Source: Alphaproteobacteria bacterium
GTDB lineage: Bacteria > Pseudomonadota > Alphaproteobacteria > Rs-D84
Direction: 5' to 3'
DNA: 64,000 nt
Assembly: GCA_017962125.1 (NCBI GenBank)
Contig: JAGCVZ010000011.1
Location: 115,764 to 179,763 of the forward strand
The translations under genes were made by a program, and so were the position numbers. Of the stretch, positions 3,855 to 53,100 are shown one piece after another (the first letter of the stretch is position 1; every line of letters begins with the position of its first letter). Under the pieces are notes generated by a model, which was not told where the DNA came from, made no database searches, and was given only the letters and a program-made list of their open reading frames with translations.

Positions 3855-3877
3855 GTGGGTAGTGATTAGTGTAAGTA

Positions 3878-3906
3878 AAATGGCGCGGTATACCGCGCCG
3901 TTTTAA
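3878..3906 (+). terminator. Intrinsic terminator (ggcgcgg-tata-ccgcgcc + T-run) after flavodoxin
   Basis: GC-rich 7-bp stem then GTTTT; preceded by TAGTG/TAAGTG hexamer repeats. Confidence 0.6.
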
Positions 3907-3992
3907 GTATGAATACATTTTTTCAAATTGCTTGACATATTACTTTTTTCGTATTACACTAAAACTATCCGAATGAAATAAAAAGGTAAAAG

Positions 3993-4376
3993 ATGAAAAA
4001 ACAAAATAAACTTTATGCGCTGATATTGATGCTATTACTCACCGGATGTAAAAACAAACAAAATGGGACAACAGATTACAACTGTGAACTGTCTTACCCA
4101 AAAGGTGTGGACACCGTCTATGTTATACGAACACTGGATCAGGGCGGAGCCTCCTATAATGCTCCAAGAAAATATGTGGCGGCCACAAATGCATACGGAA
4201 ACGATTATTACATGAAATTTTATTTAAATAATAAAGGAAACAATGCAGCCCGCGAACGTGACCACATTCTTTCCTTTATATCCCCTGGGGATACACTTGT
4301 TATGGATGGTAATCAGCTTATAAAAAATCTGACGTTTGAACATGCGAAAGCTAGATACTGCACGAAAAGCAAATAA
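3993..4376 (+). CDS. Hypothetical lipoprotein
   Basis: Signal peptide with LLTGC lipobox; AAAAGG ribosome-binding site. Confidence 0.5.
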   Translation: MKKQNKLYALILMLLLTGCKNKQNGTTDYNCELSYPKGVDTVYVIRTLDQGGASYNAPRKYVAATNAYGNDYYMKFYLNNKGNNAARERDHILSFISPGDTLVMDGNQLIKNLTFEHAKARYCTKSK

Positions 4377-4397
4377 ATAAAAAAATATAATCAATCA

Positions 4398-4417
4398 ACG
4401 GGCGCATTTGCGCCCGC
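4398..4417. terminator. GC-rich hairpin (gggcgc-attt-gcgccc) between convergent genes
   Basis: Perfect palindrome; flanking T/A tracts are imperfect; same GGGCGC..GCGCCC family as the hairpins at 42039 and 46648. Confidence 0.4.
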
Positions 4418-4434
4418 ACTTACACTAACACTAA

Positions 4435-5652
4435 CTACTCATACCTCAAACTATCAATCGGATTTAGTTTTGCGGCTTTTATCGCAGGCATAACACCAGA
4501 TACCAATCCGACAAACACCGCGACAGAAATTGAAACGACAACCGGCCAAATACTGAACGGCACGTTATAGCCCAATACAAACCGCCCTATTCCCTGCGAC
4601 AAACCAACCCCCAGTATCAAGCCAAACATAGACCCAATAAATGAAATCATTATTGATTCTGACAAAAATTGCGTAATGATTGTTCCCTCTTGTGCGCCAA
4701 TCGCCTTGCGAATACCAATTTCACGCGTACGTTCCGCAACCGACACCAGCATCATATTCATAATTCCAATCGATCCGACCAACAACGATACCGCCGCAAT
4801 CGCAACCAGCAACAGAGTCAAATAACTGCTGACCGTTTCCATAGTTTCCATAACTTGCTTCATATCGGTTATTTGAAAATCGTCCGCCGCACCATCCTTC
4901 AATTTATGCCGATTGCGCAAGACCGATGTTATCTGATCGGTCGCGATATTATTGTCGGAATCTTGATAGAGTTTAAGTGAAATCATCTGCACCGAATTTG
5001 GGAATCGTGAACCCGCAAGACGTTTCTTTAATGTTGTAATCGGAATTATTACCATATCGTCTTGGGAACTCATGCCAGAACTTCCTTTGGCCTTGGTAAC
5101 ACCAATCACCGTCATTGGGGTATTCCGCACGCGAATAATTTCACCCACCGGATTTTTAGGCATGCCCAATTCTTCAGCCGTTTCCGGTCCAATCACTGCA
5201 TACGTAGATGCCCCTCGCACAGCCGACATTTCAAAAAACACACCATATTCCATTTCTATATTCTGCACCGTTGCATATCCAGGATATACACCGACCATAG
5301 ATGTTGACCAATTTTTATTTCCATAGACAACCTGGGCACTGCTGTTTTCAACTGGACTAATTGCTGCTACATCGGGCAATTGCGCAATAAAATCAACATC
5401 ATCCAGTGTCAATGTCATACGATTACCAGAACGTACCCCTGCACTTTGCGCCGCACCTGCACGAATCATAATCGTATTTGTACCAAGCGAAGAAAACTGA
5501 TCAGTAATCGATTGTTGCACTGTTTCACCAACAGCAACCATTATCACAACCGCCATAATTCCAATTACTATCCCAAGTACCGTCAAAAAAGACCGCATTT
5601 TATTTCCGGAAATCGACAACCAAGATTCATGTGCAATATCATAAAACGTCAT
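4435..5652 (-). CDS. ABC transporter permease, MacB/FtsX-type
   Basis: N-terminal transmembrane helix, large periplasmic domain, C-terminal FtsX-like 3-helix bundle (GIRKAIGAQEGTI...); 4-nt overlap with the upstream ATPase gene. Confidence 0.85.
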   Translation of the reverse strand: MTFYDIAHESWLSISGNKMRSFLTVLGIVIGIMAVVIMVAVGETVQQSITDQFSSLGTNTIMIRAGAAQSAGVRSGNRMTLTLDDVDFIAQLPDVAAISPVENSSAQVVYGNKNWSTSMVGVYPGYATVQNIEMEYGVFFEMSAVRGASTYAVIGPETAEELGMPKNPVGEIIRVRNTPMTVIGVTKAKGSSGMSSQDDMVIIPITTLKKRLAGSRFPNSVQMISLKLYQDSDNNIATDQITSVLRNRHKLKDGAADDFQITDMKQVMETMETVSSYLTLLLVAIAAVSLLVGSIGIMNMMLVSVAERTREIGIRKAIGAQEGTIITQFLSESIMISFIGSMFGLILGVGLSQGIGRFVLGYNVPFSIWPVVVSISVAVFVGLVSGVMPAIKAAKLNPIDSLRYE

Positions 5653-6395
5653 TTTTTGCGCGCCTTTTGTTCGGATTTAAGCAAGACTGATTCATTTTTT
5701 GGAATTGGTCCATCGTATGTTATATGCCCATCATAGATATGAATCACACGGCTTGCATAACTTGCTATTTCAAATTCATGTGTAATCATTACAATTGTGA
5801 TTCCTAAATCATTATTCAACTTTTTAAAAAATCGCAAAATTTCATTTCCCATTTTGGAATCAAGCGCACCCGTCGGCTCATCCGCAAGTATAATCTTTGG
5901 ATCACCAGCCAGTGCGCGCGCAATCGCAACCCGTTGCTTCATACCGCCTGAAAGTTGTGTAGGTAAATATGTTTCAAATTTTTCTAAATCAACCAATTTT
6001 AACATTTCACGTGCGCGACTAATTCTTTCCGACATAGGTAAACCGCGATACATAAGGGGCAACATCACATTGTCCAAGATATTACGTTTTGGCAACAAAT
6101 TAAAATTTTGAAACACAAACCCAATGTATTCATTACGAACTTTCGCCAATTCATCGGATAAAAGCGTTGTAATATCCTTTCCATAAAGTTCATAAATACC
6201 CGAAGTCGGCGTATCCAAAGCACCAATTATATTCATACAGGTTGATTTACCCGACCCCGAAGGTCCCATAATCGCAACAAATTCACCCGGCATAATATCA
6301 AAGGTGTTGTCAAACAGAACTTGCTGCTCACCCCCGATTTCAAGCGGAAAACTTTTACAAATTTTTTTTAATGAAATAACCGGTGTCTTTTTCAT
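5649..6395 (-). CDS. ABC transporter ATP-binding protein (MacB/LolD-type nucleotide-binding domain)
   Basis: Walker A GPSGSGKST, signature LSGGMKQR, Walker B ILADEPTGALD, H-loop ITHE. Confidence 0.9.
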   Translation of the reverse strand: MKKTPVISLKKICKSFPLEIGGEQQVLFDNTFDIMPGEFVAIMGPSGSGKSTCMNIIGALDTPTSGIYELYGKDITTLLSDELAKVRNEYIGFVFQNFNLLPKRNILDNVMLPLMYRGLPMSERISRAREMLKLVDLEKFETYLPTQLSGGMKQRVAIARALAGDPKIILADEPTGALDSKMGNEILRFFKKLNNDLGITIVMITHEFEIASYASRVIHIYDGHITYDGPIPKNESVLLKSEQKARKK

Positions 6396-6406
6396 ACGAA
6401 CAACCC

Positions 6407-7603
6407 TTATCTTGGCCCACCGCCAGGTACACCACCTGGTCCCCCCATCATTCCACCACCCCGATTATTATTCCGACTGGTGTTTGATTTTTTCTGTTGC
6501 CCCATATATCCAATAATAACTTTGTCGCCTTCTTGAATTTCATCAGAGATTACTTGCGTTTCAGTTGCCGTTATCAAACCTTTGGTATATGGCACAAGAA
6601 CAACACGAGAACCACGTTTAATTGCTAAATGATTTGCCGGTGTAACATTATCATCAGCCGTTTCAACTATACCATCAAAACTGCGCAACAACAGTGCAGA
6701 ATTTTGAACCTTCCACGTATCATGCGCCGCATTTACAATAATCGTCACAAACGCCGTCATACCCGGCATAAGGCGCAAATCCGAATTATCCACATCAATT
6801 ACCACAGTATAAACCACAACGTTTGATGTGGTTGTTGGCGAAAGACGAACTTGACGCACAAAACCCTCAAAAGTCTGTCCGGAATACGCATCAACAGTAA
6901 AAGTTACTTTTTGCCCCTGCTTTATCACCCCGATATCAGCTTCGGACACAGAAGTTTCAATCTGCATTTTTGTTAAATCTTCGGCAATTTCAAATAAATC
7001 CGGCGTTTGGAAAGATGCCGCAACTGTTTGACCTTTATCAACCTTGCGCGAAATAACCGTTCCATCAACAGGCGAAACAATAGTCGCGTACCCAAGGTTT
7101 GTGACCGCTCTATCATACTGCGACTGCATTCGCTTTACAGATTGCAACGCCTGTTCATATGTTGCCTGAGATTGTTCCATTTCTGCGCGTGCAATATAAC
7201 CAGAATCAAACAAAGATTTATCGCGTTCATAATTACTTTTTGCTAAATTTAACTGTGATTTAGCGGATTCAAGCGATGCTTCGGCTTCGTCCACAGATGC
7301 CTTTAACACAGACGGTTCAATTTCTAAAAGTCTATCCCCTTTTTTCACAGTAGAATTATAATCTACAAAAATATCTGAAATTGTCCCGGACACCTGCGAC
7401 CCTACATTTACAGTATTTACAGGTTGAATTTCACCAGTTGCGGTTACTGTTTGAGACAAATTTCCACGCATAATATCCACCGTTACGAAGTCTTTCTTTG
7501 CAACCTTGGACGCCGTCCCAACAAAGGCGTAAATCATAACAATTACAGCGGCCCCAGCAATACACCACCATTTGTGCCGAATAAACCATCTTTTTTTATT
7601 CAT
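6407..7603 (-). CDS. Periplasmic adaptor subunit (HlyD/MacA family) with Gly-rich C-terminal tail
   Basis: N-terminal transmembrane anchor, coiled-coil hairpin, beta-barrel region; C-terminus GGGMMGGPGGVPGGGPR. Confidence 0.8.
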   Translation of the reverse strand: MNKKRWFIRHKWWCIAGAAVIVMIYAFVGTASKVAKKDFVTVDIMRGNLSQTVTATGEIQPVNTVNVGSQVSGTISDIFVDYNSTVKKGDRLLEIEPSVLKASVDEAEASLESAKSQLNLAKSNYERDKSLFDSGYIARAEMEQSQATYEQALQSVKRMQSQYDRAVTNLGYATIVSPVDGTVISRKVDKGQTVAASFQTPDLFEIAEDLTKMQIETSVSEADIGVIKQGQKVTFTVDAYSGQTFEGFVRQVRLSPTTTSNVVVYTVVIDVDNSDLRLMPGMTAFVTIIVNAAHDTWKVQNSALLLRSFDGIVETADDNVTPANHLAIKRGSRVVLVPYTKGLITATETQVISDEIQEGDKVIIGYMGQQKKSNTSRNNNRGGGMMGGPGGVPGGGPR

Positions 7604-8924
7604 CTTTTGCCCCTTCTAATTCAGATTTTAAATCCCCGATAGCCAAAGCCACTGCCGCCCGTTTGATAAACAAATCGTACTTTGCCGCATTGTTTTGCTT
7701 TTGCGCGGACACCAGTTCAGATTGCGCAGTCTGCCAATCAAGCATTGTTGCCCTTCCAACCTTGTACATACCACTTGTCACTCTTTCTGTTTCGGTTGCA
7801 GACTTTAACAATGCCTTGGTCTGTTCCAAAACTTTTTGCGCAGTCTTATAATTATTATATGCGGTAAAAACATCCAATTCTGCGGCATTTGTTGTTTGCT
7901 GTTCATTATATTTTGCGCGCGTATAATCCGCTTCGGCCGCACGCAGGCCATACATATTCGCAAAGCCCGCAAATATCGGCATAGATGCCCGAATACCCAC
8001 AGAACCATTTATCCTGTTCGACGTGGGGCTAAAAGTTCCCGACAAAGTATCATCATTCCAAGATATCGACCCCGAAGCCGAAATAGACGGTAAATTTTTC
8101 AAAAACGCGCTATTGCGCCGATGCCAAGCAGCATCCTTGTTCGCCGCGGCCTTTAACAAATCAGGACGTTTTTCACGCGCAATCTTTAACAATTCATCAA
8201 TGTTTTCATTTTCCGCTTCGGTTCCGAACGTTGACGACATATCCGCAATTTTTATATCACCATCCGCCGGAAAAGAAAGTTTAGTAAGTAAAGTTCCCTT
8301 GGTAATTTCACGATTATTCTTTGATCGTTCAAGGGCTAATTTTGCACCCGCCAAAGTCGTTTCCGCCTTTAACACATCCGCGCGCGCCACAGCCCCAGCC
8401 TTAAACTTTTTACTTGCCGTATCATAAGCCGTCTGTGCCACTGTCAACGCAGATTTGGAAGATTCCACATCCGCGTCCGCATTTAATAACTCATAATATG
8501 ACCCAACAAGCCCGTAAACAAAATTTTGAACAGTTTCACTGAAATCAAACCCTGCGGCACGGTAGGCAGCAATCATTTGATTCATATCAGCTGTTCTTTT
8601 ACCAAAATCAAAAATCAAATAAGATGCGGAAATTGATGCACCATACCCCCAATCATCCCATTCGTGTTCATGATAATTCTTACTGGCATTAAGTCCAACC
8701 GAAACGCTTGGCAAATAACTTGCATAACCGGCATTTTTACTAAAATGACTTGACCGCAGCGATGCATACGCCGCCGCAGTTTGCGGATTTCGACAAAGTC
8801 CCAACTTAATCACGTCTTGCAAAGATTGTACACCATCCGGCACATCCCTGCGTGTGGCACAATCATCGTCCGCCATAGCAACAAATGGGAAACAAAGCAC
8901 AAGAGTGAGAAAAAAACGCTTCAT
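7596..8924 (-). CDS. TolC-family outer membrane efflux protein
   Basis: Signal peptide, two tandem TolC repeats with coiled coils; 8-nt overlap with the adaptor gene; first gene of a four-gene efflux operon. Confidence 0.8.
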   Translation of the reverse strand: MKRFFLTLVLCFPFVAMADDDCATRRDVPDGVQSLQDVIKLGLCRNPQTAAAYASLRSSHFSKNAGYASYLPSVSVGLNASKNYHEHEWDDWGYGASISASYLIFDFGKRTADMNQMIAAYRAAGFDFSETVQNFVYGLVGSYYELLNADADVESSKSALTVAQTAYDTASKKFKAGAVARADVLKAETTLAGAKLALERSKNNREITKGTLLTKLSFPADGDIKIADMSSTFGTEAENENIDELLKIAREKRPDLLKAAANKDAAWHRRNSAFLKNLPSISASGSISWNDDTLSGTFSPTSNRINGSVGIRASMPIFAGFANMYGLRAAEADYTRAKYNEQQTTNAAELDVFTAYNNYKTAQKVLEQTKALLKSATETERVTSGMYKVGRATMLDWQTAQSELVSAQKQNNAAKYDLFIKRAAVALAIGDLKSELEGAKDE

Positions 8925-9001
8925 ACAAACTCTCCTACCCGGGCATTATACCGAAAAAAATCCTAAAAAACAATTCTTTTTTATCAAAAAAACAAAACAA
9001 T

Positions 9002-9030
9002 TTGACAGTTTATATTTTTTGTATTATAGT
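9002..9030 (+). promoter_or_regulatory. Consensus sigma70-type promoter (TTGACA-17-TATAGT) of the small-membrane-protein array
   Basis: Exact TTGACA at 9002-9007, 17-nt spacer, TATAGT at 9025-9030; duplicated at 9492-9520. Confidence 0.55.
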
Positions 9031-9054
9031 TAGTACTAACTAAAAGGGTAAAAC

Positions 9055-9303
9055 ATGAAACGTGAAAAGATGCAAAAACTTGGCTGGGCGCTTGTTGCCT
9101 TTGGGGCGATAGCTGTTTGCATTAGTATTTTGCCAGACGGCAATCGTTTAGATGAAAGCATATCAGGCCCCAAACCACCTGTGTTTTCAAAGGAAGAATT
9201 CAAATCCAGGGGGGCAACTAACACTATAACATTTGGTGGGGCAATGGCAATGACCGCCGGCCTGTGGTTTCTTGTCCGCGCCACAAAAAAGCGCTCAAGA
9301 TAA
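9055..9303 (+). CDS. Small two-helix membrane protein, paralog 1 of 4
   Basis: 82 aa; basic N-terminus, two hydrophobic helices, basic C-tail; AAAAGGGTAAAACATG ribosome-binding site; three tandem paralogs follow. Confidence 0.55.
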   Translation: MKREKMQKLGWALVAFGAIAVCISILPDGNRLDESISGPKPPVFSKEEFKSRGATNTITFGGAMAMTAGLWFLVRATKKRSR

Positions 9304-9491
9304 ATACGGACAAAAGTTTCGGGGTTTTACTTTGCCCCAAACTCGACACATGGAATTCTAAAATTTTAGAACACTAAAATTTTATTACACACCCCTATCA
9401 AATGAATCCACCAAATGGCGCTGTGCGATTTATACAAAAAAATCCTAAAAAACATTATTTTTATAAAAATTTTTAAAAAACCAACAATCGC

Positions 9492-9520
9492 TTGACAATT
9501 TGATTGTTTTGTATTATATT
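9492..9520 (+). promoter_or_regulatory. Second copy of the consensus promoter (TTGACA-17-TATATT)
   Basis: TTGACA 9492-9497, TATATT 9515-9520; about 100 bp upstream region repeats that of 8950-9050. Confidence 0.55.
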
Positions 9521-9549
9521 ACAAACAACTTGATAAAAAGGCAAAGAAA

Positions 9550-9804
9550 ATGAAAAAGAATAAGATGAATAAATTATGCGGTGCGCTTTTTATTGCAAGT
9601 GGCGTTTCCACGCTAATTTTGGCGGGGGCCAAAATCGGTGCGGACAATTTGGCGGACACCGGTACAAAAGCACCCGTTACGGAAAAGCAAGCGATAATGA
9701 AAGAATTTTGCCCATCCGATCCAAAATATGTCGCCCTGGGATTTTTCGGGGCAATGGCATTGATTGGTGGAATAAGCATTATAAATAAATCAAAAGAAAA
9801 ATAA
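9550..9804 (+). CDS. Small two-helix membrane protein, paralog 2
   Basis: 84 aa; same architecture as 9055..9303 (MKKNKMNKLCGALFIASG...GFFGAMALIGGISIINKSKEK). Confidence 0.55.
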   Translation: MKKNKMNKLCGALFIASGVSTLILAGAKIGADNLADTGTKAPVTEKQAIMKEFCPSDPKYVALGFFGAMALIGGISIINKSKEK

Positions 9805-9820
9805 ACAAAAAGAGCAAAAA

Positions 9821-10081
9821 ATGGAAAAAAAGCATACTAAAGATATAATGGGAAAAATTGGCTGGGGGTTAGTTGCTATTGCATGTATTGCTAAATACAT
9901 TAGTGGCGGCACAGACCAAGACTATATAAACGCGCCATCACGTCAAAATGTTAAAAATCCAAGTCCAGATGCGACATTCGCGGAAGATATTAAATCAACA
10001 AAAACCGTGGATTGGTTTAGTATGGCTACCATGGTATCAGGTGGCGTTTTGCTGCTATTGTCAAAAAAGCAATCAAAATAA
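9821..10081 (+). CDS. Small two-helix membrane protein, paralog 3
   Basis: 86 aa; 16-nt spacer after paralog 2; same architecture. Confidence 0.55.
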   Translation: MEKKHTKDIMGKIGWGLVAIACIAKYISGGTDQDYINAPSRQNVKNPSPDATFAEDIKSTKTVDWFSMATMVSGGVLLLLSKKQSK

Positions 10082-10099
10082 TTAAACAGGAGGCTATAA

Positions 10100-10318
10100 A
10101 TGCAACAGAAAAATAAAAATGATAAACTGGCTAATTTTTTAGTAGCTACGGGAAATATCACCATGGGGCTTGGGTGTCTTGTAATGCTGATGTTTGGTTG
10201 TACCGATGCACCAACAACACACACAGAAGATACTATTTCGTTGTATGGTGCAGCCGCCGGCGCTGCTGGTGCCTTTCTCCGCATTATTGGTGAAAGATTA
10301 CAAGAAAAAAACAAATAA
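10100..10318 (+). CDS. Small two-helix membrane protein, paralog 4
   Basis: 72 aa; AACAGGAGGCTATAAATG ribosome-binding site; same architecture, Ala/Gly-rich second helix. Confidence 0.5.
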   Translation: MQQKNKNDKLANFLVATGNITMGLGCLVMLMFGCTDAPTTHTEDTISLYGAAAGAAGAFLRIIGERLQEKNK

Positions 10319-10327
10319 CCAAATAAA

Positions 10328-10357
10328 AAACCGAAACTTTTGTTTCGGTTTTTTTTA
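10328..10357 (+). terminator. Intrinsic terminator (ccgaaac-N6-gtttcgg + T8)
   Basis: Perfect 7-bp stem and long T-run right after paralog 4. Confidence 0.7.
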
Positions 10358-10393
10358 TTGCCTTGGCGCGGGTGTTTTTATTAAACTGGAAAT

Positions 10394-11332
10394 ATGGAAA
10401 GGATTTTTCGGTTTTTTATCGCGCCCTGCTTTGCAATGTATTCTGCGGTTGCGACGGCTGCTGTGCGAAAGCCAGCAATGTATGTTGACCCGAATGCGTA
10501 CGCATATATGTATCCATACTTAAATAATCAAATGCGAACCGACCTGAATCCCGGCACCAGTGTTTTAATGACAAATAATCCGATTGATGTGGTCGTTAAA
10601 ACCAAAAGAATGTCCGAACCTCGTCGTGTTGTTCCGCGACCTGCACCTAAAACAGCGCGCGCCGCAACAACCACGACCATACCAACAACTAATTCAACAC
10701 GTCGCGTTGTCGCACGCGCGGCAAGTAAACCTGTTGCGCCATCGCAGGCGCGCACAGTACGTAGTGTTGTACCGCGCACCGTACGAGAAAACGCACGTGC
10801 AGCAACAAATACTGGGGAATCCGTAACCGTGTCCTATGATGTTCCAACTACACGTTGCCTTGCGGGATACACTGAATGTATGGATGGATATTGTATGCGT
10901 GAAAACATGGCTTATAACCGATGTTACTGCAGTGCAAAATTAGCACAAATAGATTCCCAATACCAAGACACCATAAGCAACATGATCATCCAAATAATAC
11001 AATTACGCAGTGGGGGGGCATGGACAGATGAAGAGATGAACGAATACTGGATGGAACACATCGGTCAGTATGTTGGCGAAAATTCATGGACAAACCTTGA
11101 AAATGCCCTGAATATCGAATGGCCGACACCCGAAGAACGCATCAGTGGCCAACAAGTTTTTCTTACCGCTCATGAATACTGTGTTGCACACCTTAGAAAC
11201 TGCGCATCAATGGCATCAAACATGCGCGATGCGTATCGTTCCAGAATATCACGTGATTGCAAAACGTATGAACAAGGTCTGCAAAAAATTTACAATGCTG
11301 CAGCCGCAATGGTTGAATCTTATAGTGAATAA
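10394..11332 (+). CDS. Secreted hypothetical protein: signal peptide, Arg/Pro/Thr-rich linker, C-terminal 8-Cys domain
   Basis: ORF with N-terminal hydrophobic signal, low-complexity RxVxPR repeats, then a Cys-containing globular region. Confidence 0.5.
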   Translation: MERIFRFFIAPCFAMYSAVATAAVRKPAMYVDPNAYAYMYPYLNNQMRTDLNPGTSVLMTNNPIDVVVKTKRMSEPRRVVPRPAPKTARAATTTTIPTTNSTRRVVARAASKPVAPSQARTVRSVVPRTVRENARAATNTGESVTVSYDVPTTRCLAGYTECMDGYCMRENMAYNRCYCSAKLAQIDSQYQDTISNMIIQIIQLRSGGAWTDEEMNEYWMEHIGQYVGENSWTNLENALNIEWPTPEERISGQQVFLTAHEYCVAHLRNCASMASNMRDAYRSRISRDCKTYEQGLQKIYNAAAAMVESYSE

Positions 11333-14222: not shown

Positions 14223-17200
14223 CTAAAACCTGTACATCCCCGAAAGGTGGACTTTATGCATTTGGATATTAGAATTATATTGATAACGATAATCCAAACC
14301 GATATGCAACCCATTTACAGCCAAGAATTCTGCACCTGCACCTGCATGCGCCCAAAGAGGATCAACGCCAATGTCATAATCACGCCATGGTTCAACAACC
14401 GCAAACTTGTATTTCATTGTATCAGGCGATGAAATCAAATCGTATTCAATACCAACCGTCGCATATGGGCGAATTTGGAACCATGATGATGGATAAATAC
14501 GTTTTTGGGCAGTTAAAGAATATCCCGGTGTCAAAATCACGCGTCCATCAAAATCAAGGTTCATATAATCAGTACCACCAACTTTTTCGGTCATATCAAA
14601 ACCAAAATTATATCCCGCACGCAGATATAGATTTCCAATAATATACTGATTCAACCAATCGTGTATCAAACCTGTTTCGCCAACAATCCCATAAGAAAAC
14701 GCATCGCCTTCTATTCTATCAACCCACGTCTGGTCACGCTTGACATCAATAAAGTTCACATCAAACATAGCATCACCATACCAACGCGCCTTGTTATTTA
14801 AAGTCTTGATGAAATACGCACCTGCACCAACATTAAGATTGCGAACATCCGTATCAACATGACCAATCGCATTAACCGTACCATATCCTAAATCTATAAC
14901 ATCATTGTCTTCACCTTTGGTATGATTTACATGCCCCATCCAACCCAAAATCAGAGTATCACTTGATTGCCAATCGTATCCAAAGTTAAACCCGAAACGT
15001 GATCCGTGCGCATGATTGTCAACCAAATCATCCCAAAAATAACCATAATCAGCAATGAACCACAATTTGTTAACACGACGATTACGATTCCAAATAGCTT
15101 CATCAATAAATCTGTCGGACAAATCTTTAAATAATGTATGAGTATTTAATTCCAAAGCATCTGCAATCTGATTGGCCTCACGCAATTGGAACACACGACT
15201 AAATGCACGAATAACATTCGGATTGCCACGTTCAGTATAATCTTTCATACGCGGATACAGTTCTTCATTCACACGATAAAGCGGTGTATCATCAAACAAC
15301 AACCTTGCAACACCCAAAGGAGAATCGTATGAAAAACCATGTTGCAAAAGTTCATATTCAATCAAATCGTCTAATGCGCCCGCGGATTGATATTCGCCAG
15401 TGGTATAATACGGTGCACTTGCGACCACAGGTTGTAATTTAAACATCTTGTCATCATTGTTAAACCGATCGTCAAACACAACATATAAACTTTCCCTTGT
15501 TCCATCACCATTCATATCATAGGAAATCAAACGTATCGGCAATTCAGTACCGGCACCATTATATTCACCAGTCGCCGCCAAATAATCTGTGCAAATAGTT
15601 CCGTCTGCATTACAGAAATTTATACTTAACCCAGAAATTCTTGTCGCAAGCTCTTCAATACCATCGTCGGCATGCAACAACCAAATTGCAGAATTACCTG
15701 TAACAGTATTGCGTAAATTTATACCTATCTGTGTATCTGACAATCCCGAAACATCGGAAGATACCGTATCCGATACATTTGTTATCAATTTCCCAGAAAC
15801 AGAAATTAACGGCTCTGCCCCAAGTACATTATTCGTTATCGTTCCAACCATGTACTCATCATCAAACGTCGCCGTTGCCCAATAAGTATACGCATCCCCA
15901 GAATTTGCAAAAGCAAGCAAACGACCGGCATTATCAAAAGTATAATCACCCCCAACCGTCATATGGGCAAGACCAACAATATCCGTTCCGCCAATTATAT
16001 CACCACCAACGGTCACATTGATACCATCGGCCAACCCAGGATTATAAAGTGCAACATCATCACCACCAAGATTGTCCCCAACATTGACCGCCCCGGCATT
16101 CAGTGCAACCCGGCCCCCATCAACAGATACAACATCATGCGCAACATTTATTGTTTGCGCAAATAATCCAACACCATTTTCAGAACCACTAGCCGATATT
16201 TCACCACCAACATTTATATCAAAATTATTTGCATTTATATCCGTAAAGCCGTTCACAACGTTCATTCCACCAAGCGATGCACCAACCAGCCCAACCGTCA
16301 AATCTTGTGCCACAGAAACCACGCCTGAATTAATGGTATTCGTACCCGAAACATTTAAACGGCCATTTTCAGAAACCACAATACCATCACCGCCCACATT
16401 AATTGTTGGCGCGGACAAATTCATCGTTCCGGCACTTGCAACAATTCCCACCGCATTGATAGCAGTCGAGGCAGACAAATCCATCACCGCATTTGAGTTA
16501 CTAAACCCATTTCGAATCGTATTTGCATCTATTGCGCCATTTGTCACACTCAATGCAAAAGAATTCAGATTATTATCAAAAAACTCATCAATTCTTTCAC
16601 CAAGCGACAACGTTCCAGTAGTCAAACTAAATGAATTAGTTGTAAACATACTCGATAAATCAAAACCATGTGCAAGTATAGTAGCACCCGAAATTTCGCC
16701 GATGAAATCGCCCTTGTTAATAAAAGAAGTCCCGTCACCGCCGATAATCCGTAAAGATGTTGCATTAATACGCATCGCTCCCGAATTCGATTCGTTTGTT
16801 ATGTCACCCCCTACGACAATTTGCCCACCAGTCAAAGACATCACCCCTGATGACTTGTTTTCAATATTGCCTTCTACCATAAATTGACCAGTTCCACTAA
16901 GCAACACTGTCACACCCTTGGAATCCAAAGCCTGGAAAACACCATCAACATTCAGGGAATTTCCTTCTATGATTGCGCTACCCACTCCGGATGCAACAAA
17001 TTGCCCCAAAGATACAGCATCACCATATAAATTTAAACCACCGGTTGCCTCTATAACATTAGCGGTAAAATTATATAAACTTCCGCCCGCGCCACCAATG
17101 GTCAGATTTTTTTCCGCATCGACATCCAAGCCCCCACCAACAGAAATTCCGCCATTCGTAAATATAGAATAATTGGTATCAATAGCCGATTCGGCATAAA

Positions 17201-17435
17201 TACCGCCCGGCGCAACCGGCGTTTCTGCATCATACCCGACATAGATATCCCCAGCGGTCGTCAACGTTCCACCAACACTTATTCCCGCACCCTTTTGAAT
17301 AATATATGATTCATCAGTCAGGTTCAACGCCCCAGAAATCGGTGTAATTTCCCCTGGTGTTCCAGGAATAACAGTGTCCGATAACGCACAAAACGGTGTC
17401 AAGCAATATAAAAAAGGAAATAATTTTTTTATCAT
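14223..17435 (-). CDS. Autotransporter (type Va) surface protein with beta-helical passenger and C-terminal beta-barrel (Sca-like)
   Basis: 1070 aa; signal peptide; Gly/Thr/Asn-rich parallel-beta-helix-type repeats; C-terminal ~280 aa with alternating hydrophobic beta strands ending ...HLSGMYRF (terminal aromatic). Confidence 0.75.
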   Translation of the reverse strand: MIKKLFPFLYCLTPFCALSDTVIPGTPGEITPISGALNLTDESYIIQKGAGISVGGTLTTAGDIYVGYDAETPVAPGGIYAESAIDTNYSIFTNGGISVGGGLDVDAEKNLTIGGAGGSLYNFTANVIEATGGLNLYGDAVSLGQFVASGVGSAIIEGNSLNVDGVFQALDSKGVTVLLSGTGQFMVEGNIENKSSGVMSLTGGQIVVGGDITNESNSGAMRINATSLRIIGGDGTSFINKGDFIGEISGATILAHGFDLSSMFTTNSFSLTTGTLSLGERIDEFFDNNLNSFALSVTNGAIDANTIRNGFSNSNAVMDLSASTAINAVGIVASAGTMNLSAPTINVGGDGIVVSENGRLNVSGTNTINSGVVSVAQDLTVGLVGASLGGMNVVNGFTDINANNFDINVGGEISASGSENGVGLFAQTINVAHDVVSVDGGRVALNAGAVNVGDNLGGDDVALYNPGLADGINVTVGGDIIGGTDIVGLAHMTVGGDYTFDNAGRLLAFANSGDAYTYWATATFDDEYMVGTITNNVLGAEPLISVSGKLITNVSDTVSSDVSGLSDTQIGINLRNTVTGNSAIWLLHADDGIEELATRISGLSINFCNADGTICTDYLAATGEYNGAGTELPIRLISYDMNGDGTRESLYVVFDDRFNNDDKMFKLQPVVASAPYYTTGEYQSAGALDDLIEYELLQHGFSYDSPLGVARLLFDDTPLYRVNEELYPRMKDYTERGNPNVIRAFSRVFQLREANQIADALELNTHTLFKDLSDRFIDEAIWNRNRRVNKLWFIADYGYFWDDLVDNHAHGSRFGFNFGYDWQSSDTLILGWMGHVNHTKGEDNDVIDLGYGTVNAIGHVDTDVRNLNVGAGAYFIKTLNNKARWYGDAMFDVNFIDVKRDQTWVDRIEGDAFSYGIVGETGLIHDWLNQYIIGNLYLRAGYNFGFDMTEKVGGTDYMNLDFDGRVILTPGYSLTAQKRIYPSSWFQIRPYATVGIEYDLISSPDTMKYKFAVVEPWRDYDIGVDPLWAHAGAGAEFLAVNGLHIGLDYRYQYNSNIQMHKVHLSGMYRF

Positions 17436-39417: not shown

Positions 39418-39867
39418 TTATTTATATTCCGCTTTATGCGTCTGCAAATAATTCAACAATGCTGCTTTGTGTTTTGCAAATGGCAATTGTTGTTTATCCG
39501 CACCCGGCACAAAAATTGTAACCCATGGATTCAGATACTGAATTACATAACATAATGCGCGAATATCCCGTACATCTGCCGATTGTATTTTACCAGTATT
39601 TGAATCATATTCACATTTTATCGTGGCACGAACCGAATGGTAAAAATCTTTTTTGGTTTTATCATTACAAACATCCGTAAATCCAATCTGACGCAGGCAC
39701 CCAACCACAAAATCGGTTGCCTGCTCACCCGCATATTCTTTACGCGGTTGAAACGATAAATCCTCTTTTTTGCCGTCATTACCATATACCTTAAACCGCC
39801 CCATTGGTTTCAAGGTTTCGCAAATCTGCCGTATTTCATCGGCACTAAGATTTTCTGTTACCATCAT
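39418..39867 (-). CDS. Hypothetical protein (149 aa)
   Basis: ORF with codon usage like its neighbours; no recognisable motif. Confidence 0.4.
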   Translation of the reverse strand: MMVTENLSADEIRQICETLKPMGRFKVYGNDGKKEDLSFQPRKEYAGEQATDFVVGCLRQIGFTDVCNDKTKKDFYHSVRATIKCEYDSNTGKIQSADVRDIRALCYVIQYLNPWVTIFVPGADKQQLPFAKHKAALLNYLQTHKAEYK

Positions 39868-39928
39868 AACATTATCCTTACTTTATTCGAGATAAATATA
39901 ATACAAAATAATACGATTGTCAAGAAAG

Positions 39929-49771: not shown

Positions 49772-50150
49772 GTTCCTCTCCCTTGTGTTACACTAACCAC
49801 TAAATAAAAACACCACCGAAAAACTTCTAGTGGTTGGAGGTTAACGACAATTTGACGAAATTGTGTGTTTATTTTGATGGGCCTTTTACGCCCGCCATTA
49901 TTCACATCCCCCTCACCCTCTTTTGGGTTGGAGCCTTGCCAAAAACATATTTGGCTTCGTCAAAGAGGTCGTTACACCCCATCGGCGGAACACCCACCGA
50001 TAAAAACAGTCTACTAAAATACAGAAATAAAAAACAAGGAAAAAAATAATCGACCATTAACAGTTTGTTATAAATTTTCTAAATAAAAAACTTGTGTTTT
50101 GATATTTATATTCTAATATAAGAACAAACTTAGGATTGGGGAAAACATCA

Positions 50151-53100
50151 ATGAAAACAAGAACTAGAAAATCTGTGGGCGGGCGTATAAAATCAGCCTT
50201 GGTTATTGTAATTTCTTTGGGAATTATTGTTGCGTCTGGGCTTTATTGGTTTAGCCATCGCAACGCACATATGACAAAAATGGATGTCTATGTTTCGGCG
50301 CCCACAACCACGCATTTTACTGACGACATATCAACGGTCTTGTCTGATAATTTGCCAGACATAAATAATAACCGTGAAATATCTGCACCGGGAACATTGA
50401 CGATATCTTATGATGTTGTATCGGGTCCAAACAATCCGGCGTTCCAATATGATTCATCCGACGCAAAAATAGCAGAAAACATAAAAATTATACCTGCGAT
50501 TCGTGGCAAATGGAAAATGCCAACCCCGTACGAAATAACCTTTACCCCAGAACAAGATTGGCCGACAGGAACAAAGTTCACTGTAAAAATCGGTAAAAAG
50601 TTGTTCGCACGTGATGTCCGCCCAAACCGAACATCTGTATCTTTTAAAACCGAACCTATTACATCTTCGGTCGATGTCTTTAACACTTATGCTGTTCCTG
50701 GGGGTGATAATTCGGTTATAGGTATCGCAGTTATATCCTTTAATCGCCCAATCCAAACACGCGATTTTGCAAACAAGGTTTCGATGAAACTTGACGGTCA
50801 GCGTATCAATTTCAGCACAAAATTTGACAGATATATGCGAACCGCAATAATACAGACTGAACCTATCAAGATAACTGATGAAGCACAAACTTTACGTATG
50901 AAATTGAATCGTATCACCGATGCGGATGGAATTTCACAAACAGAAAAAACAACTGCAAAAACAATTATAAATACTGCCGATGATTTTTTCAGAATTGCTG
51001 ATGTTAAAACAATAACTGCCGACGATAAACTTGGTAATCCACAACAACTATTGCTGTTGGATATGACGGCGGCAGCGCGCGACGATACCGATTGGACAAA
51101 ATATGTCACCGCGTACCTTTTGCCAAAAGAATCCCCTAAAAAAGCAAACAACGAATCAGACGAAGATTCAGAAGAACCCGAAGACGATTCACATAAATGG
51201 GCCAAAGATGAAATTACACCGGAAATTCTTGGCAAATCAGAGAAACTTGCATTAAAACATGTGGATTTTGTAAATCCCGCAGGAACATATCAGTATGCTT
51301 TTTCTTATGATATCTCTGACAATGTGATACGATACATTTATGTTGATATTGCGCCGAACATGTCGTCTAAGAATGGTTTCAAAACCAAGAACGGCCTTAC
51401 CAGCGTCATGGCCGCCGCTTATCCAGAACGCAGTGTAAAAATCATTGGACGTGGCGCCCTACTCTCACTTGCTGGCGACAGAAAACTTGGTCTTGTTGCA
51501 CGCGGGGGTGTTGATACGGCGTATGTTGATATATATAAAGTAGAATCACGTGAAATAAACCATCTTATTACACAAACATACAATTTATTTTCTAATCTTG
51601 AATTTCGTGCACCATGGGTATTTGATGCTTACGATATGTCCGTTGTTTTTCAAAAAAAGATACCTTTTGCAGACACTGCCAAGAACCATGTGAATTATAC
51701 ATCCATAAATCTTGGCGAATACTTGGACCGTACGTATAATGACCAAACCGGTATATTTGTTATTAAAACTGGGGCATCACAAACCGATACAAAATATGGT
51801 GATGCGAGGCTTGTACTTTTAACGAATCTGGGGTTAATCCGCAAGATAAATCTTGATAGAACGTCTGTTGTGTTTGTGTCACACCTGTCAAACGGCAAAC
51901 CTGCCAAAGATGTTACCATTACGGTTCTTGGGCGTAACGGTCAACCGATTTGGTCTGGGGTTGCGAACCAAGACGGCATAGTTGATATTCCATATTTTTC
52001 TAATGATGAATATAGGAACGAAAAAGAACCTGTGGCAATAGTTGCACGCGATGATAATGACATATCTTTTATTCCATACAATGCCGAAGGCGAGCAAACC
52101 ACAGAATTTTCTAAATTTGATATAGGTGGCGCGTATTCATCATCAGAGACCCCATTACGTTCTTTCGTCTTTTCAGATCGGGGAATATATCGTCCTGGGG
52201 AAACAGTAATAATAGGAACCATTGTTGAAAACAAAAACTTTTCTTCGGTTGCTGAAATCCCCGTAAAAATCGAAATCACCGATCCACGTGGTCGTACGGT
52301 TATTGAAAAAAAGATTTCTCTTAATTCAAATGGGATGTTTGATATTGCACACCAATTACCCCAAGATGCAACTATTGGGCAGTATGATATCAGTGTTTAT
52401 TCACTTAACAATCGTGGTCGTATCCAAGATTCCATCGGCAATGGGACATTTAATGTCCAAGAATTTGTTCCGGACACTATGAAAATTACGGCAAAATTTG
52501 ACGATGCAAAAACTAATGGTTGGATGTCCCCAGAAAACATTGTTGCAAACGTTTTCCTAAACAATCTTTACGGAACACCGGCAACAGATCGCCGAATTTC
52601 CGCACACGCAACATTACATCCGTACGATTTTAGTTTTGATGAATACCGCGGTTATAAATTCACCGGTAATTTTACCTCTAATGGTGTTATATCCAAAGGC
52701 TTTGCCCGCACCGGTCAAACTTTTAAAATAGATTTGCCTGATGTACGCACTGATGAAAACGGCGTTGCAAAAATAGATGTTAATTTCAATCGTGAAATCC
52801 CCACTGGCACGTACATGTTAAACCTTGAAATCAAAGGATTTGAAGCCGGCGATGGCAAGAGCATACAAACAACAATTTCATCGCGTGTATCAAATTTAAA
52901 ATATCTTATAGGTTTTCATCCAGATTCTGATTTGTCATATATTGCGCGCGATTCTAAACACAAAATTAAACTTGTTGCACTGGATAGTGATGCCAAGGTA
53001 ACCGATACTGACGAACTTAATGTAAAATTAATAAAACGTGAAACATTGACAAGTCTTATCAAGGATTATTCAAACAATTATAAATATAAAACTATTTCCC

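Follow-up and report, generated by a model that had tools for sequence, protein, structure and literature searches.

We describe an array of four small genes, designated p1 to p4, that occupies positions 8925 to 10360 of a 64,000-nt stretch of DNA (hereafter, the window) from a reduced-genome rumen alphaproteobacterium close to Candidatus Enterousia. The evidence supports the view that these are real genes for small two-helix membrane proteins. They belong to a small orphan family with three subfamilies (A, B, and C) that is restricted to one lineage. The genes sit in a chromosomal slot, located between a divergent operon for a MacAB-TolC-type pump and a gene for a 312-aa secreted protein, and this slot is a hot spot for variable gene content. 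We are highly confident in the structural and evolutionary description of the array as a whole that is presented below. What the proteins do is a far more tentative matter, and the function that we favor, which is protection of the inner membrane against membrane-targeting toxins or similar agents, is put forward as a possibility rather than as a probable outcome.

The four open reading frames (ORFs) all lie on the + strand: p1 at 9055-9303 (82 aa, subfamily A), p2 at 9550-9804 (84 aa, subfamily B), p3 at 9821-10081 (86 aa, subfamily A), and p4 at 10100-10318 (72 aa, subfamily C). Their lengths, their placement, and the tight packing of the last three genes, with intergenic gaps of 16 nt (p2 to p3) and 18 nt (p3 to p4), are as described in an earlier note on this DNA that had been prepared from the sequence alone. 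The predicted proteins are exact matches of GenBank entries MBP5485695-98, each of which carries the annotation “hypothetical protein.” The strongest ribosome-binding site of the array, AGGAGG, belongs to p4. The earlier note had also considered that the ORFs might be spurious, which is excluded by two observations. First, orthologues in related genomes exhibit ratios of nonsynonymous to synonymous substitution rates (dN/dS) of 0.2-0.5 at dS values of 0.5-2, and therefore the ORFs are translated genes under purifying selection. Second, at least seven contigs, assembled independently from different samples, have the order tolC then p1-p2-p3-p4, so the arrangement is not an assembly chimera. An assembly artefact is likewise ruled out by the ~79% identity of the two intergenic copies and by the unique junction, both of which are described below.

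The proteins, at ~8-9 kDa, share a common plan: a Lys-rich N-terminus, a hydrophobic segment, a polar loop of 12-35 residues, a second hydrophobic segment, and a Lys/Arg-rich tail. The second hydrophobic segment is rich in Gly, Ala, and Ser with small-xxx-small motifs, and it reaches a 15-residue Kyte-Doolittle hydropathy of 1.3-2.1 before the basic tail begins. Net charges are +2 to +4 over the first 12 residues, 0 to -3 in the loop, and +1 to +5 in the tail. Because both ends are basic and the loop is neutral to acidic, the positive-inside rule, applied by hand, predicts a hairpin in which both termini are cytoplasmic (N-in/C-in) and the loop is periplasmic. An AlphaFold2 model of p1 based on the family alignment, which has low confidence (pLDDT 60), places helices at residues 2-25 and 47-81 and leaves the loop between them disordered. 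Hydropathy, charges, and these modeled helices agree with the two-helix architecture that had been proposed for all four proteins. In p3, the predicted periplasmic loop bears the motif TDQDYINAPSRQNVKNPSPDATFAEDIKS.

If helix 1 were cleaved as a signal peptide, the product would be a C-terminally anchored protein with a periplasmic N-terminal segment. Approximately 60% of subfamily A members have acceptable residues at positions -3 and -1 ahead of an STD motif. The p1 protein is not among them, as it carries a Pro just past the hydrophobic segment and has no usable signal-peptidase site. In p4, the sequence C-T-D-x-P-T, which is invariant in subfamily C, directly follows the first hydrophobic segment. 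The preceding LMFGC fits the PROSITE-style (PS51257-type) lipobox pattern, and p4 may be a lipoprotein. When the end of the N-terminal hydrophobic segment was checked for a lipobox ([LVI][ASTVI][GAS]C or the PS51257-type pattern), p4 and the member at related locus L029 (LLMAC) fit the relaxed form, but not those at L022 and L011 (LLCVC). All subfamily C members share the Cys, and the hydrophobic stretch before it is long, at 24 residues. No conserved Cys is present at the lipobox position in p1, p2, or p3. Conservation in subfamilies A and B is higher in the loop and helix 2 than in helix 1, which suggests that function is carried by the predicted periplasmic segment and helix 2, with helix 1 serving as a generic anchor or signal.

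Sequence comparisons establish how the four proteins are related to each other. By BLASTP, p1 aligns with p3 at 30% identity (33.5 bits) and with p2 at 25% identity (25.8 bits). A profile comparison of subfamily A (p1 and p3) with subfamily B (p2) yields a 95.8% probability over the full length (E = 8e-9), whereas subfamily A compared with subfamily C (p4) yields 49.7% (E = 1.7e-4) and B compared with C only 3.8%. By these measures, p1, p2, and p3 are demonstrably homologous. The claim of four paralogs in the earlier note thus holds for the first three genes, while p4 is only weakly linked to them; its paralogy is probable, given the shared architecture, the shared locus, and a T-D motif after helix 1. 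The nearest relatives of p1 (P0045 and P0050) are 41-43% identical to it. It is the single member of its 90% cluster, although it was encountered on several contigs (6 in one search and 11 in another), and no close orthologue of p1 was found among the other sampled species.

The earlier note could not place the proteins in a known family, and extensive searches lead to the same outcome. Scans of the four proteins against Pfam-A, NCBIfam, PHROGs, and PADLOC returned nothing near threshold, with no PADLOC match at all. The best sub-cutoff matches, given as bits versus cut-off, were SdpI (15 versus 28.2), DUF6944 (15.2 versus 32), an LPXTG anchor (9.2 versus 20), and strep_RK_lipo (11.8 versus 20.85). 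The YqaE/Pmp3 (PF01679) and GlsB/YeaQ/YmgE (PF04226) families, which the note had disfavored, are absent from the Pfam results even at E ≤ 10, and the same scan gave no Entericidin match. A search of Protein Data Bank (PDB) sequences with the family profile gave no match (best E = 0.38). A word-indexed search of 5.8 billion clusters found 21 proteins. An exhaustive hidden Markov model (HMM) scan of 1.84 billion representative proteins gave 10 hits, one of them spurious (a 593-aa repeat protein), and no distant annotated relatives.

The entericidin locus deserves a brief comparison regardless of the absent match. The ecnAB locus of enterobacteria consists of tandem paralogous genes for small envelope proteins with their own promoters, and the products are ~45-aa lipoproteins with a single amphipathic helix. 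The array resembles it in having tandem genes for small envelope proteins equipped with promoters, and in the lipobox-like Cys of p4 only. It differs in that p1 to p3 have no lipobox and no protein matches the Pfam Entericidin model.

A role as holins or antiholins was among those suggested in the earlier note, and in this reading the proteins would be holin-like or small pore-forming toxins, possibly with antiholin isoforms, that permeabilize the inner membrane of the producer. Class II holins, such as the phage 21 S pinholin, are proteins of 70-90 aa with two transmembrane helices, both ends in the cytoplasm, and a charged C-terminal tail. The proteins of the array are alike in size, in their two helices and charged tail, and in the N-in/C-in arrangement predicted from hydropathy, end charges, and the AlphaFold2 helices. 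Furthermore, several members carry a second in-frame Met at codon 6 or 10 after Lys, as read from the sequences, which is reminiscent of the two start sites of dual-start holins. However, there is no endolysin, spanin, lysis cassette, prophage, or toxin-antitoxin context at the locus. The proteins have no PHROG match, as the best match in the lysis category is an Rz-like spanin at E = 0.25, and no relative was found in 50,697 phage records (two tblastn searches) or in the IMG/VR viral contigs (four scans). The polar loop, with as many as 35 residues, exceeds that of typical class II holins in length. In addition, a consensus promoter that appears to be constitutive is hard to reconcile with a lethal product. 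We therefore consider a holin-like function to be highly improbable.

Promoter P1, which serves p1, spans 9002-9030 (+) and consists of TTGACA, a 17-nt spacer, and TATAGT, matching 11 of 12 consensus positions. P2 spans 9492-9520 (+), with TTGACA, 17 nt, and TATATT. Both had been recognized previously as exact promoters. Only 0.07 exact matches to TTGACA-N17-TATANT are expected in the 64-kb window, yet there are 3, a number reached by none of 100 shuffled sequences. The third, at 39895-39923 (-), is TTGACA-17-TATATT with the same TTTTGTATTATATT spacer and -10 context as P2, and it precedes an unrelated soluble 149-aa ORF at 39418-39867 (-) that has no Pfam hit. The same form (TTGACA...TTTTGTATTATA) is also found ahead of a family member at locus L009, in a different genomic context of a more distant genome. 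Because this form drives the unrelated 149-aa ORF, it is best read as the general strong-promoter consensus of the lineage rather than as specific to the array. A mobile promoter-gene module, which the shared promoter might have implied, was rejected because the same promoter form at 39895 drives an unrelated ORF. The consensus elements point to strong constitutive transcription of the array.

The array ends with an intrinsic terminator at 10325-10357 (+), composed of a hairpin and a U-tract. Its CCGAAAC/GTTTCGG core lies within a 13-bp stem extended by A/U pairs. The predicted fold of 10325-10354 has a free energy of -15.3 kcal/mol (z = -5.06), none of 200 shuffled sequences is as stable, and the element is conserved in all related loci, in agreement with the strong terminator that had been claimed. 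It looks bidirectional, with an A-tract on the other side. A search with Rfam for RNA elements in the leader (~18-25 nt) or spacer yielded only sub-threshold hits on the terminator hairpin.

The two intergenic regions upstream of p1 and p2 reveal how the array probably arose. Copy 1 (8925-9054) carries what can be read as back-to-back divergent promoters. Upstream of P1 is a block, ATTATACCGAAAAAAATCCTAAAAA, that is conserved in all related loci, and its minus strand is likely to contain the tolC promoter, with a -10 element TATAAT at 8945-8950, a -35 element TTGTTT at 8968-8973, and a 17-nt spacer. Copy 2 (9421-9549) is a diverged duplicate of copy 1. The two are ~79% identical over aligned columns and differ by three indels, and so the earlier description of near-identical upstream segments is too strong. 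On its minus strand (9421-9470), copy 2 retains a relic of the divergent tolC promoter (ATGTTT, 15 nt, TATAAA), whereas its + strand promoter is still perfect. This copy is orthologous to the single intergenic region of L001-type loci. The relic promoter aims into the 3' end of p1; if it were active, the resulting RNA would be antisense to p1.

Directly after the p1 stop codon, at 9307-9338 (+), lies a decayed terminator copy, as revealed by alignment to the terminators found in the window, in L001, and in L005. The 5' arm of this copy reads ACGGAC in place of CCGAAAC, and the U-tract is interrupted. The hairpin that is left has a predicted free energy of -12.4 kcal/mol and z = -1.5, with no U-tract. 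Because of these changes, the internal terminator probably no longer stops transcription, and P1 transcripts probably read through into p2-p4. Between this relic and copy 2 is a unique junction (9339-9420) with no match elsewhere in the window or in 93 related loci (L001-L093). Within this junction, positions 9353-9384 form a 16-nt tandem direct repeat (GAATTCTAAAATTTTA / GAACACTAAAATTTTA) that could pair as a hairpin.

Since intergenic copy 2 and the decayed terminator copy both duplicate parts of the slot, sequence comparison indicates that the whole slot (intergenic region, gene, and terminator) was duplicated in tandem and that the internal terminator then decayed. The proposal that a promoter had been duplicated along with its gene is thus correct as far as the duplication is concerned, and the unit must be enlarged to the whole slot, including the terminator and the divergent tolC promoter that has since decayed. 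The four-gene state was reached by whole-slot duplication, followed by decay of the internal terminator and by cassette replacement through recombination with other species. In its present form, the array has two consensus promoters of the sigma-70 type and a single strong terminator at its end. The earlier note had argued that the duplication reflects selection on dosage or diversification. Selection on dosage is not supported, because the copies are 25-30% identical members of different subfamilies rather than extra doses of one gene. Diversification is a reasonable reading, as the comparisons described next reveal variable copy number and subfamily combinations, accelerated protein evolution, and exchange of cassettes between species.

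To examine the slot across species, the gene for the 312-aa protein was used as an anchor with one genome per GTDB species, and the loci were scanned by the family HMM, jackhmmer, and an architecture filter. Copy number varies: the slot between tolC-macAB and the 312-aa gene holds 0-4 small genes from the three subfamilies, depending on the species. Subfamily A is present alone in L020 and L023, and subfamily C alone in L022 and L029. The combination B + A occurs in L001-4, L016, L017, L019, L021, and L036, and A + C in L005-8, L011, and L015. Three genes (B + A + C) are found in L018, and the full A + B + A + C arrangement occurs only in the window. In species where identity of the 312-aa protein falls to ~60% or below, the locus almost never includes a family member. 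Isolated ones reside elsewhere, after ychF in L009 and also in L091.

The slot of L014 holds no family member. It contains instead the gene for an unrelated 145-aa protein (5492-5929, +), which has the same promoter and in whose product a loop of ~90 aa separates a hydrophobic anchor at the N-terminus from a C-terminal hydrophobic segment with a Lys-rich tail. Because this protein has the same plan and the same promoter, it suggests that the slot selects for architecture, not sequence family. Other insertions were also observed. A radical SAM gene with the CxxxCxxC motif CNLRCAHCC has been inserted into the slot of L016 (5075-5905, -), L017 (5064-5906, -), and L018 (5075-5905, -), where it separates the small genes from the 312-aa gene, and the L017 slot additionally has a 407-aa gene with no domains (3869-5092, -). 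The radical SAM gene gives generic core matches only (36 bits versus a cut-off of 300 for the YydG peptide epimerase, and ~19 bits for prokaryotic viperin), and it could encode a peptide-modifying or defence enzyme. As a clue that the small proteins are precursors of modified peptides, the gene was rejected because these matches are only generic and it is absent from the window.

The small genes also differ from their neighbors in evolutionary tempo. We compared the small genes and their flanks in the same genome pairs. The dN/dS values are 0.01-0.07 for macB, the ATPase gene, macA, tolC, and rho (dS 0.6-1.6) and 0.10-0.16 for the 312-aa gene (dS 1.0-1.6), whereas those of the small genes lie between 0.2 and 0.5 (dS 0.5-2). 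Protein evolution of the cassettes is therefore 5-10 times faster than that of the flanking genes.

These contrasts bear on the possibility that the small proteins assist or regulate the adjacent pump as subunits, as AcrZ does for AcrB and YknW for YknXYZ. Adjacency and back-to-back promoters are conserved in the nearest species, and small membrane partners of efflux pumps are known (PMC5985334). However, the pump genes exhibit dN/dS values of 0.03-0.07, whereas the small genes evolve 5-10 times faster and are swapped, lost, and multiplied. The pump is found without the family in L014, the family is found without a nearby pump in L009, L029, and L091, and copy number ranges from 0 to 4. In more distant species, neither the small genes nor the pump genes are found beside the 312-aa gene. 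A dedicated pump subunit is consequently quite unlikely.

Several cassettes are far younger than their surroundings. The p2 gene of the window and the p2 gene of a different species (L001/L036) share 95.6% DNA identity with a dS of 0.02, whereas the flanks are at ~1. Compared with L001, p2 has 1 synonymous difference in 55.7 synonymous sites, whereas tolC has 174 in 300 (Fisher p = 2e-17). The p3 genes adjacent to the exchanged p2 in the same two genomes have a dS of 1.2. Similarly, the p4 genes of L015 and L018 have a dS of 0.04 (flanks 0.5-1.0), and the p3 genes of L016/L017 and L019 have a dS of 0.02-0.06 (flanks 0.44-0.75). Because the cassettes have such low dS values relative to their flanks, we conclude that single cassettes are repeatedly exchanged between species by recombination. 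The p2 differences are 10 nonsynonymous to 1 synonymous, a ratio that is not significant against neutrality (p = 0.26), and therefore positive selection is not claimed.

It is conceivable that the small proteins are dispensable inner-membrane proteins with a role outside of conflict, such as buffering of membrane stress, modulation of envelope complexes, or partner interaction, and that their variability reflects weak constraint in a reduced genome. The values of dN/dS below 1 wherever they can be reliably measured are compatible with this explanation, as are the tiny, lineage-restricted nature of the family (10 hits, one spurious, among the 1.84 billion representatives) and its lack in some species. 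Rs-D84 genomes, which are smaller than 1 Mb, encode many hypothetical membrane proteins that are thought to mediate transport or interactions (PMC12306168). Weak constraint, however, does not explain the repeated interspecies transfer of single intact cassettes against diverged flanks, nor the maintenance of up to four copies in a genome of this size. Nor does it account for the exact promoters having been kept in both slot copies while the co-duplicated divergent promoter decayed. On balance, we regard a dispensable, non-conflict role as rather unlikely.

Our preferred reading is that p1-p4 are protective, immunity-like hairpin proteins of the inner membrane that act against membrane-targeting toxins or agents, and we offer it as a tentative possibility. 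It is favored because rapid turnover, interspecies exchange, and fast protein evolution occur beside constrained housekeeping genes and under apparently strong constitutive promoters. The membrane-targeting agents, which could be bacteriocins, phages, or peptides from a host or partner, would differ from one subfamily to the next, and each would be neutralized where the inner membrane faces the periplasm. Specificity would reside in the variable loop, and packing or oligomerization would fall to the helix rich in small residues. The conservation pattern of subfamilies A and B, with a better-conserved loop and helix 2, agrees with a functional periplasmic segment on a generic anchor. Residence in the inner membrane is favored over export because of the C-terminal anchor with its basic stop-transfer tail, the lack of a signal-peptidase site in p1, the L014 pump that has no accompanying family member, and the members located away from any pump. 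Small transmembrane immunity proteins with no recognizable homologues do exist in Alphaproteobacteria, as exemplified by CdzI (PMC5380434).

The comparison with established immunity proteins is instructive. The inner-membrane immunity proteins of pore-forming bacteriocins and microcins, like those encoded in orphan immunity-gene arrays, are small, span the membrane with 2-4 segments, are mobile between strains, diversify rapidly, and vary in copy number. Such proteins protect specifically against a cognate toxin, whose gene is usually adjacent. The array proteins share the small size, apparently constitutive expression, fast diversification, mobility, and variable copy number. They differ in that no cognate toxin is identifiable, there is no sequence similarity, and the genes occupy a fixed chromosomal slot rather than a plasmid or island.

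Several points weigh against a protective function. Neither the window nor any related locus was found to have a recognizable toxin gene beside the small genes. The 312-aa protein, which is the sole secreted protein encoded adjacently, is universal in the genus, is not variable, and has no match to a toxin fold. The library scans revealed no sequence or profile similarity to immunity families. Fast evolution and turnover would be equally expected for toxins, for factors that act at the surface or in partner interactions, and for weakly constrained dispensable genes, and dN/dS is never significantly above 1 in the small genes. Because family members also occur outside the slot (L009 and L091), the slot context is not obligatory. 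Finally, topology and signal-peptide status are predictions made by hand, and expression is read from consensus elements only.

The neighboring pump genes raise a different set of possibilities. The tolC-macA-ATPase-macB operon spans 4435-8924 (-), with Pfam matches to OEP, HlyD_D23/HlyD_3, ABC_tran, and MacB_PCD plus FtsX, respectively. Its first gene, which encodes the TolC-family outer-membrane factor (7596-8924, -; Pfam OEP, E = 6e-63), is divergent from the array. The synteny of tolC-macAB with the array is kept in the nearest species, and the operon is regarded here as a neighbor of the array. The MacA-like adaptor gene (6407-7603, -) encodes a protein that ends in a Gly-rich tail, NNNRGGGMMGGPGGVPGGGPR. 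To our knowledge, such a tail is unusual for MacA-type adaptor proteins.

Given this arrangement, the small proteins might be peptides that are exported or surface-displayed by the MacB-type pump. Helix 1 would then be a Sec signal, and mature proteins of 40-60 residues would be expelled by MacAB-TolC to act as bacteriocin-like, contact-dependent, or surface-modifying factors. The array and the operon are back to back in ~20 related loci. MacB-type pumps are known to export small proteins delivered by Sec, specifically STII, the 10-kDa dispersin (Aap), and CexE (PMC5985334), and the array proteins resemble these substrates in their small size, their Sec-type N-termini, and their encoding next to a MacB-MacA-TolC-type pump. 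Many subfamily A members have small residues at -1 and -3 before the STD motif, the Cys that is invariant in subfamily C is set in lipobox-like surroundings, helix 1 is less conserved than the rest of the protein in A and B, and turnover with interspecies exchange fits toxins too. However, the known substrates are soluble periplasmic intermediates, whereas the C-terminal anchor (hydropathy 1.3-2.1) and basic tail of the array proteins constitute a stop-transfer signal. The Pro after the hydrophobic segment of p1 leaves no usable cleavage site. Furthermore, members are encoded with no pump nearby in L009, L029, and L091, the pump of L014 lacks the family, and single-gene loci show no evident immunity partner. 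Pump-exported peptides are therefore an unlikely explanation.

A precedent for the layout is provided by the Cdz system of Caulobacter crescentus, in which cdzAB is divergent from cdzCDI and encodes the exporter of tandem 84- and 86-aa small proteins (PMC5380434). The array is similar in its alphaproteobacterial host, in its tandem small genes (82-86 aa here) divergent from an operon for an ABC transporter, adaptor, and TolC-dependent exporter, and in the Gly/Ala-rich hydrophobic helices of its products. In Cdz as well, one to three small genes are present, the distribution is patchy and horizontally acquired (PMC5380434), and CdzI is a small transmembrane immunity protein with no homologues. 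The defining features of Cdz are nevertheless lacking. Instead of a type I secretion ABC transporter, the locus encodes a MacB-type exporter, in which the permease matches MacB_PCD plus FtsX and the ATPase (ABC_tran) is separate. At their N-termini, the proteins have a basic stretch (net +2 to +4) followed by a hydrophobic one, of the Sec or anchor type, and they carry no type I or double-glycine leader. Gly, Ala, Val, and Ile account for 21-37% of residues after helix 1, compared to ~75% in mature CdzC/D, and each protein has 0-1 GxxxG motifs rather than an extended zipper and ends in a basic tail after the C-terminal helix.

Class II microcins, for their part, have a double-glycine leader of 15-19 aa that is cleaved by a C39-ABC exporter. 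No C39 peptidase-domain exporter is present among the operon genes next to the array. We thus rejected membership among Cdz-like systems and class II microcins, as the layout fits Cdz but exporter type, leader, composition, and zipper do not. It may still be asked whether the array represents a new class of Sec-dependent, membrane-anchored antagonistic peptides that are extracted, displayed, or released by a MacB-type (type VII ABC) tripartite pump. Such a system would be a functional analogue of the contact-dependent killing by Cdz, built from unrelated parts in reduced-genome gut Alphaproteobacteria, with the three subfamilies serving as exchangeable toxin or immunity cassettes. We assign this proposal a low probability.

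On the right side of the slot, the gene order is the 312-aa gene (10394-11332, +), which forms the border of the cassette slot, then a 74-aa gene, rho, and ssb. In the nearest species, the 312-aa gene is just upstream of rho. The 312-aa protein has a signal peptide, then a low-complexity linker rich in Arg, Thr, and Ala, and finally a Cys-rich C-terminal domain that is entirely helical; AlphaFold2 (pLDDT 63) predicts that the protein is helical over residues 150-311. A comparison with PDB folds gave no match (best E = 0.77). None of its 691 homologues has a Pfam domain or a name, and at least 80 GTDB species of Ca. Enterousia-like gut Alphaproteobacteria encode the protein. This family is an uncharacterized lineage marker. 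One contig from a different sample (L095, 3655-5639) agrees with the window across p4 and the terminator and for a few dozen bases into the 312-aa gene, beyond which a ParA-like ATPase gene takes over; it is either a rearranged strain or a chimeric assembly.

Elsewhere in the window, we noted a bacterial alpha-2-macroglobulin gene (1926 aa) followed by a gene for a BiPBP_C penicillin-binding protein (PBP1C-like, 791 aa) at 50136-58248 (+). These are presumably the classic A2M-PbpC pair, retained in a genome of less than 1 Mb. Three ORFs of 1070, 636, and 538 aa (14223-17435, 19184-21094, and 25959-27575, all -) have no Pfam domain at E ≤ 1e-5, and they may encode hypothetical membrane or surface proteins of the lineage. 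Ca. Enterousia belongs to the order Rs-D84, a fermentative gut lineage with genomes under ~1 Mb (PMC12306168). Ca. Enterousia and its relatives are uncultured.

For the present, the array adds one more orphan family of small membrane proteins, whose evolutionary pattern is interesting and whose function is inferred only, and variable arrays of small envelope proteins are a kind of system that is already familiar. The biology of the locus is nonetheless somewhat unusual, in that it combines duplication of an entire slot, including promoters and terminator, with interspecies shuffling of cassettes in a genome smaller than 1 Mb. The compact and clearly bounded slot can be used to follow the gain, loss, and replacement of cassettes across species and metagenome populations. 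That such a small genome keeps up to four strongly promoted, fast-evolving copies and trades them between species points to ecological pressure on the trait, for example from competitors, from phage, or from dealings with a host or partner. Should they prove to be immunity factors or toxins handled by the pump, the proteins would represent an antagonism system in a lineage where none is known, and a class of proteins that annotation pipelines routinely label “hypothetical” would gain a new small-protein family.

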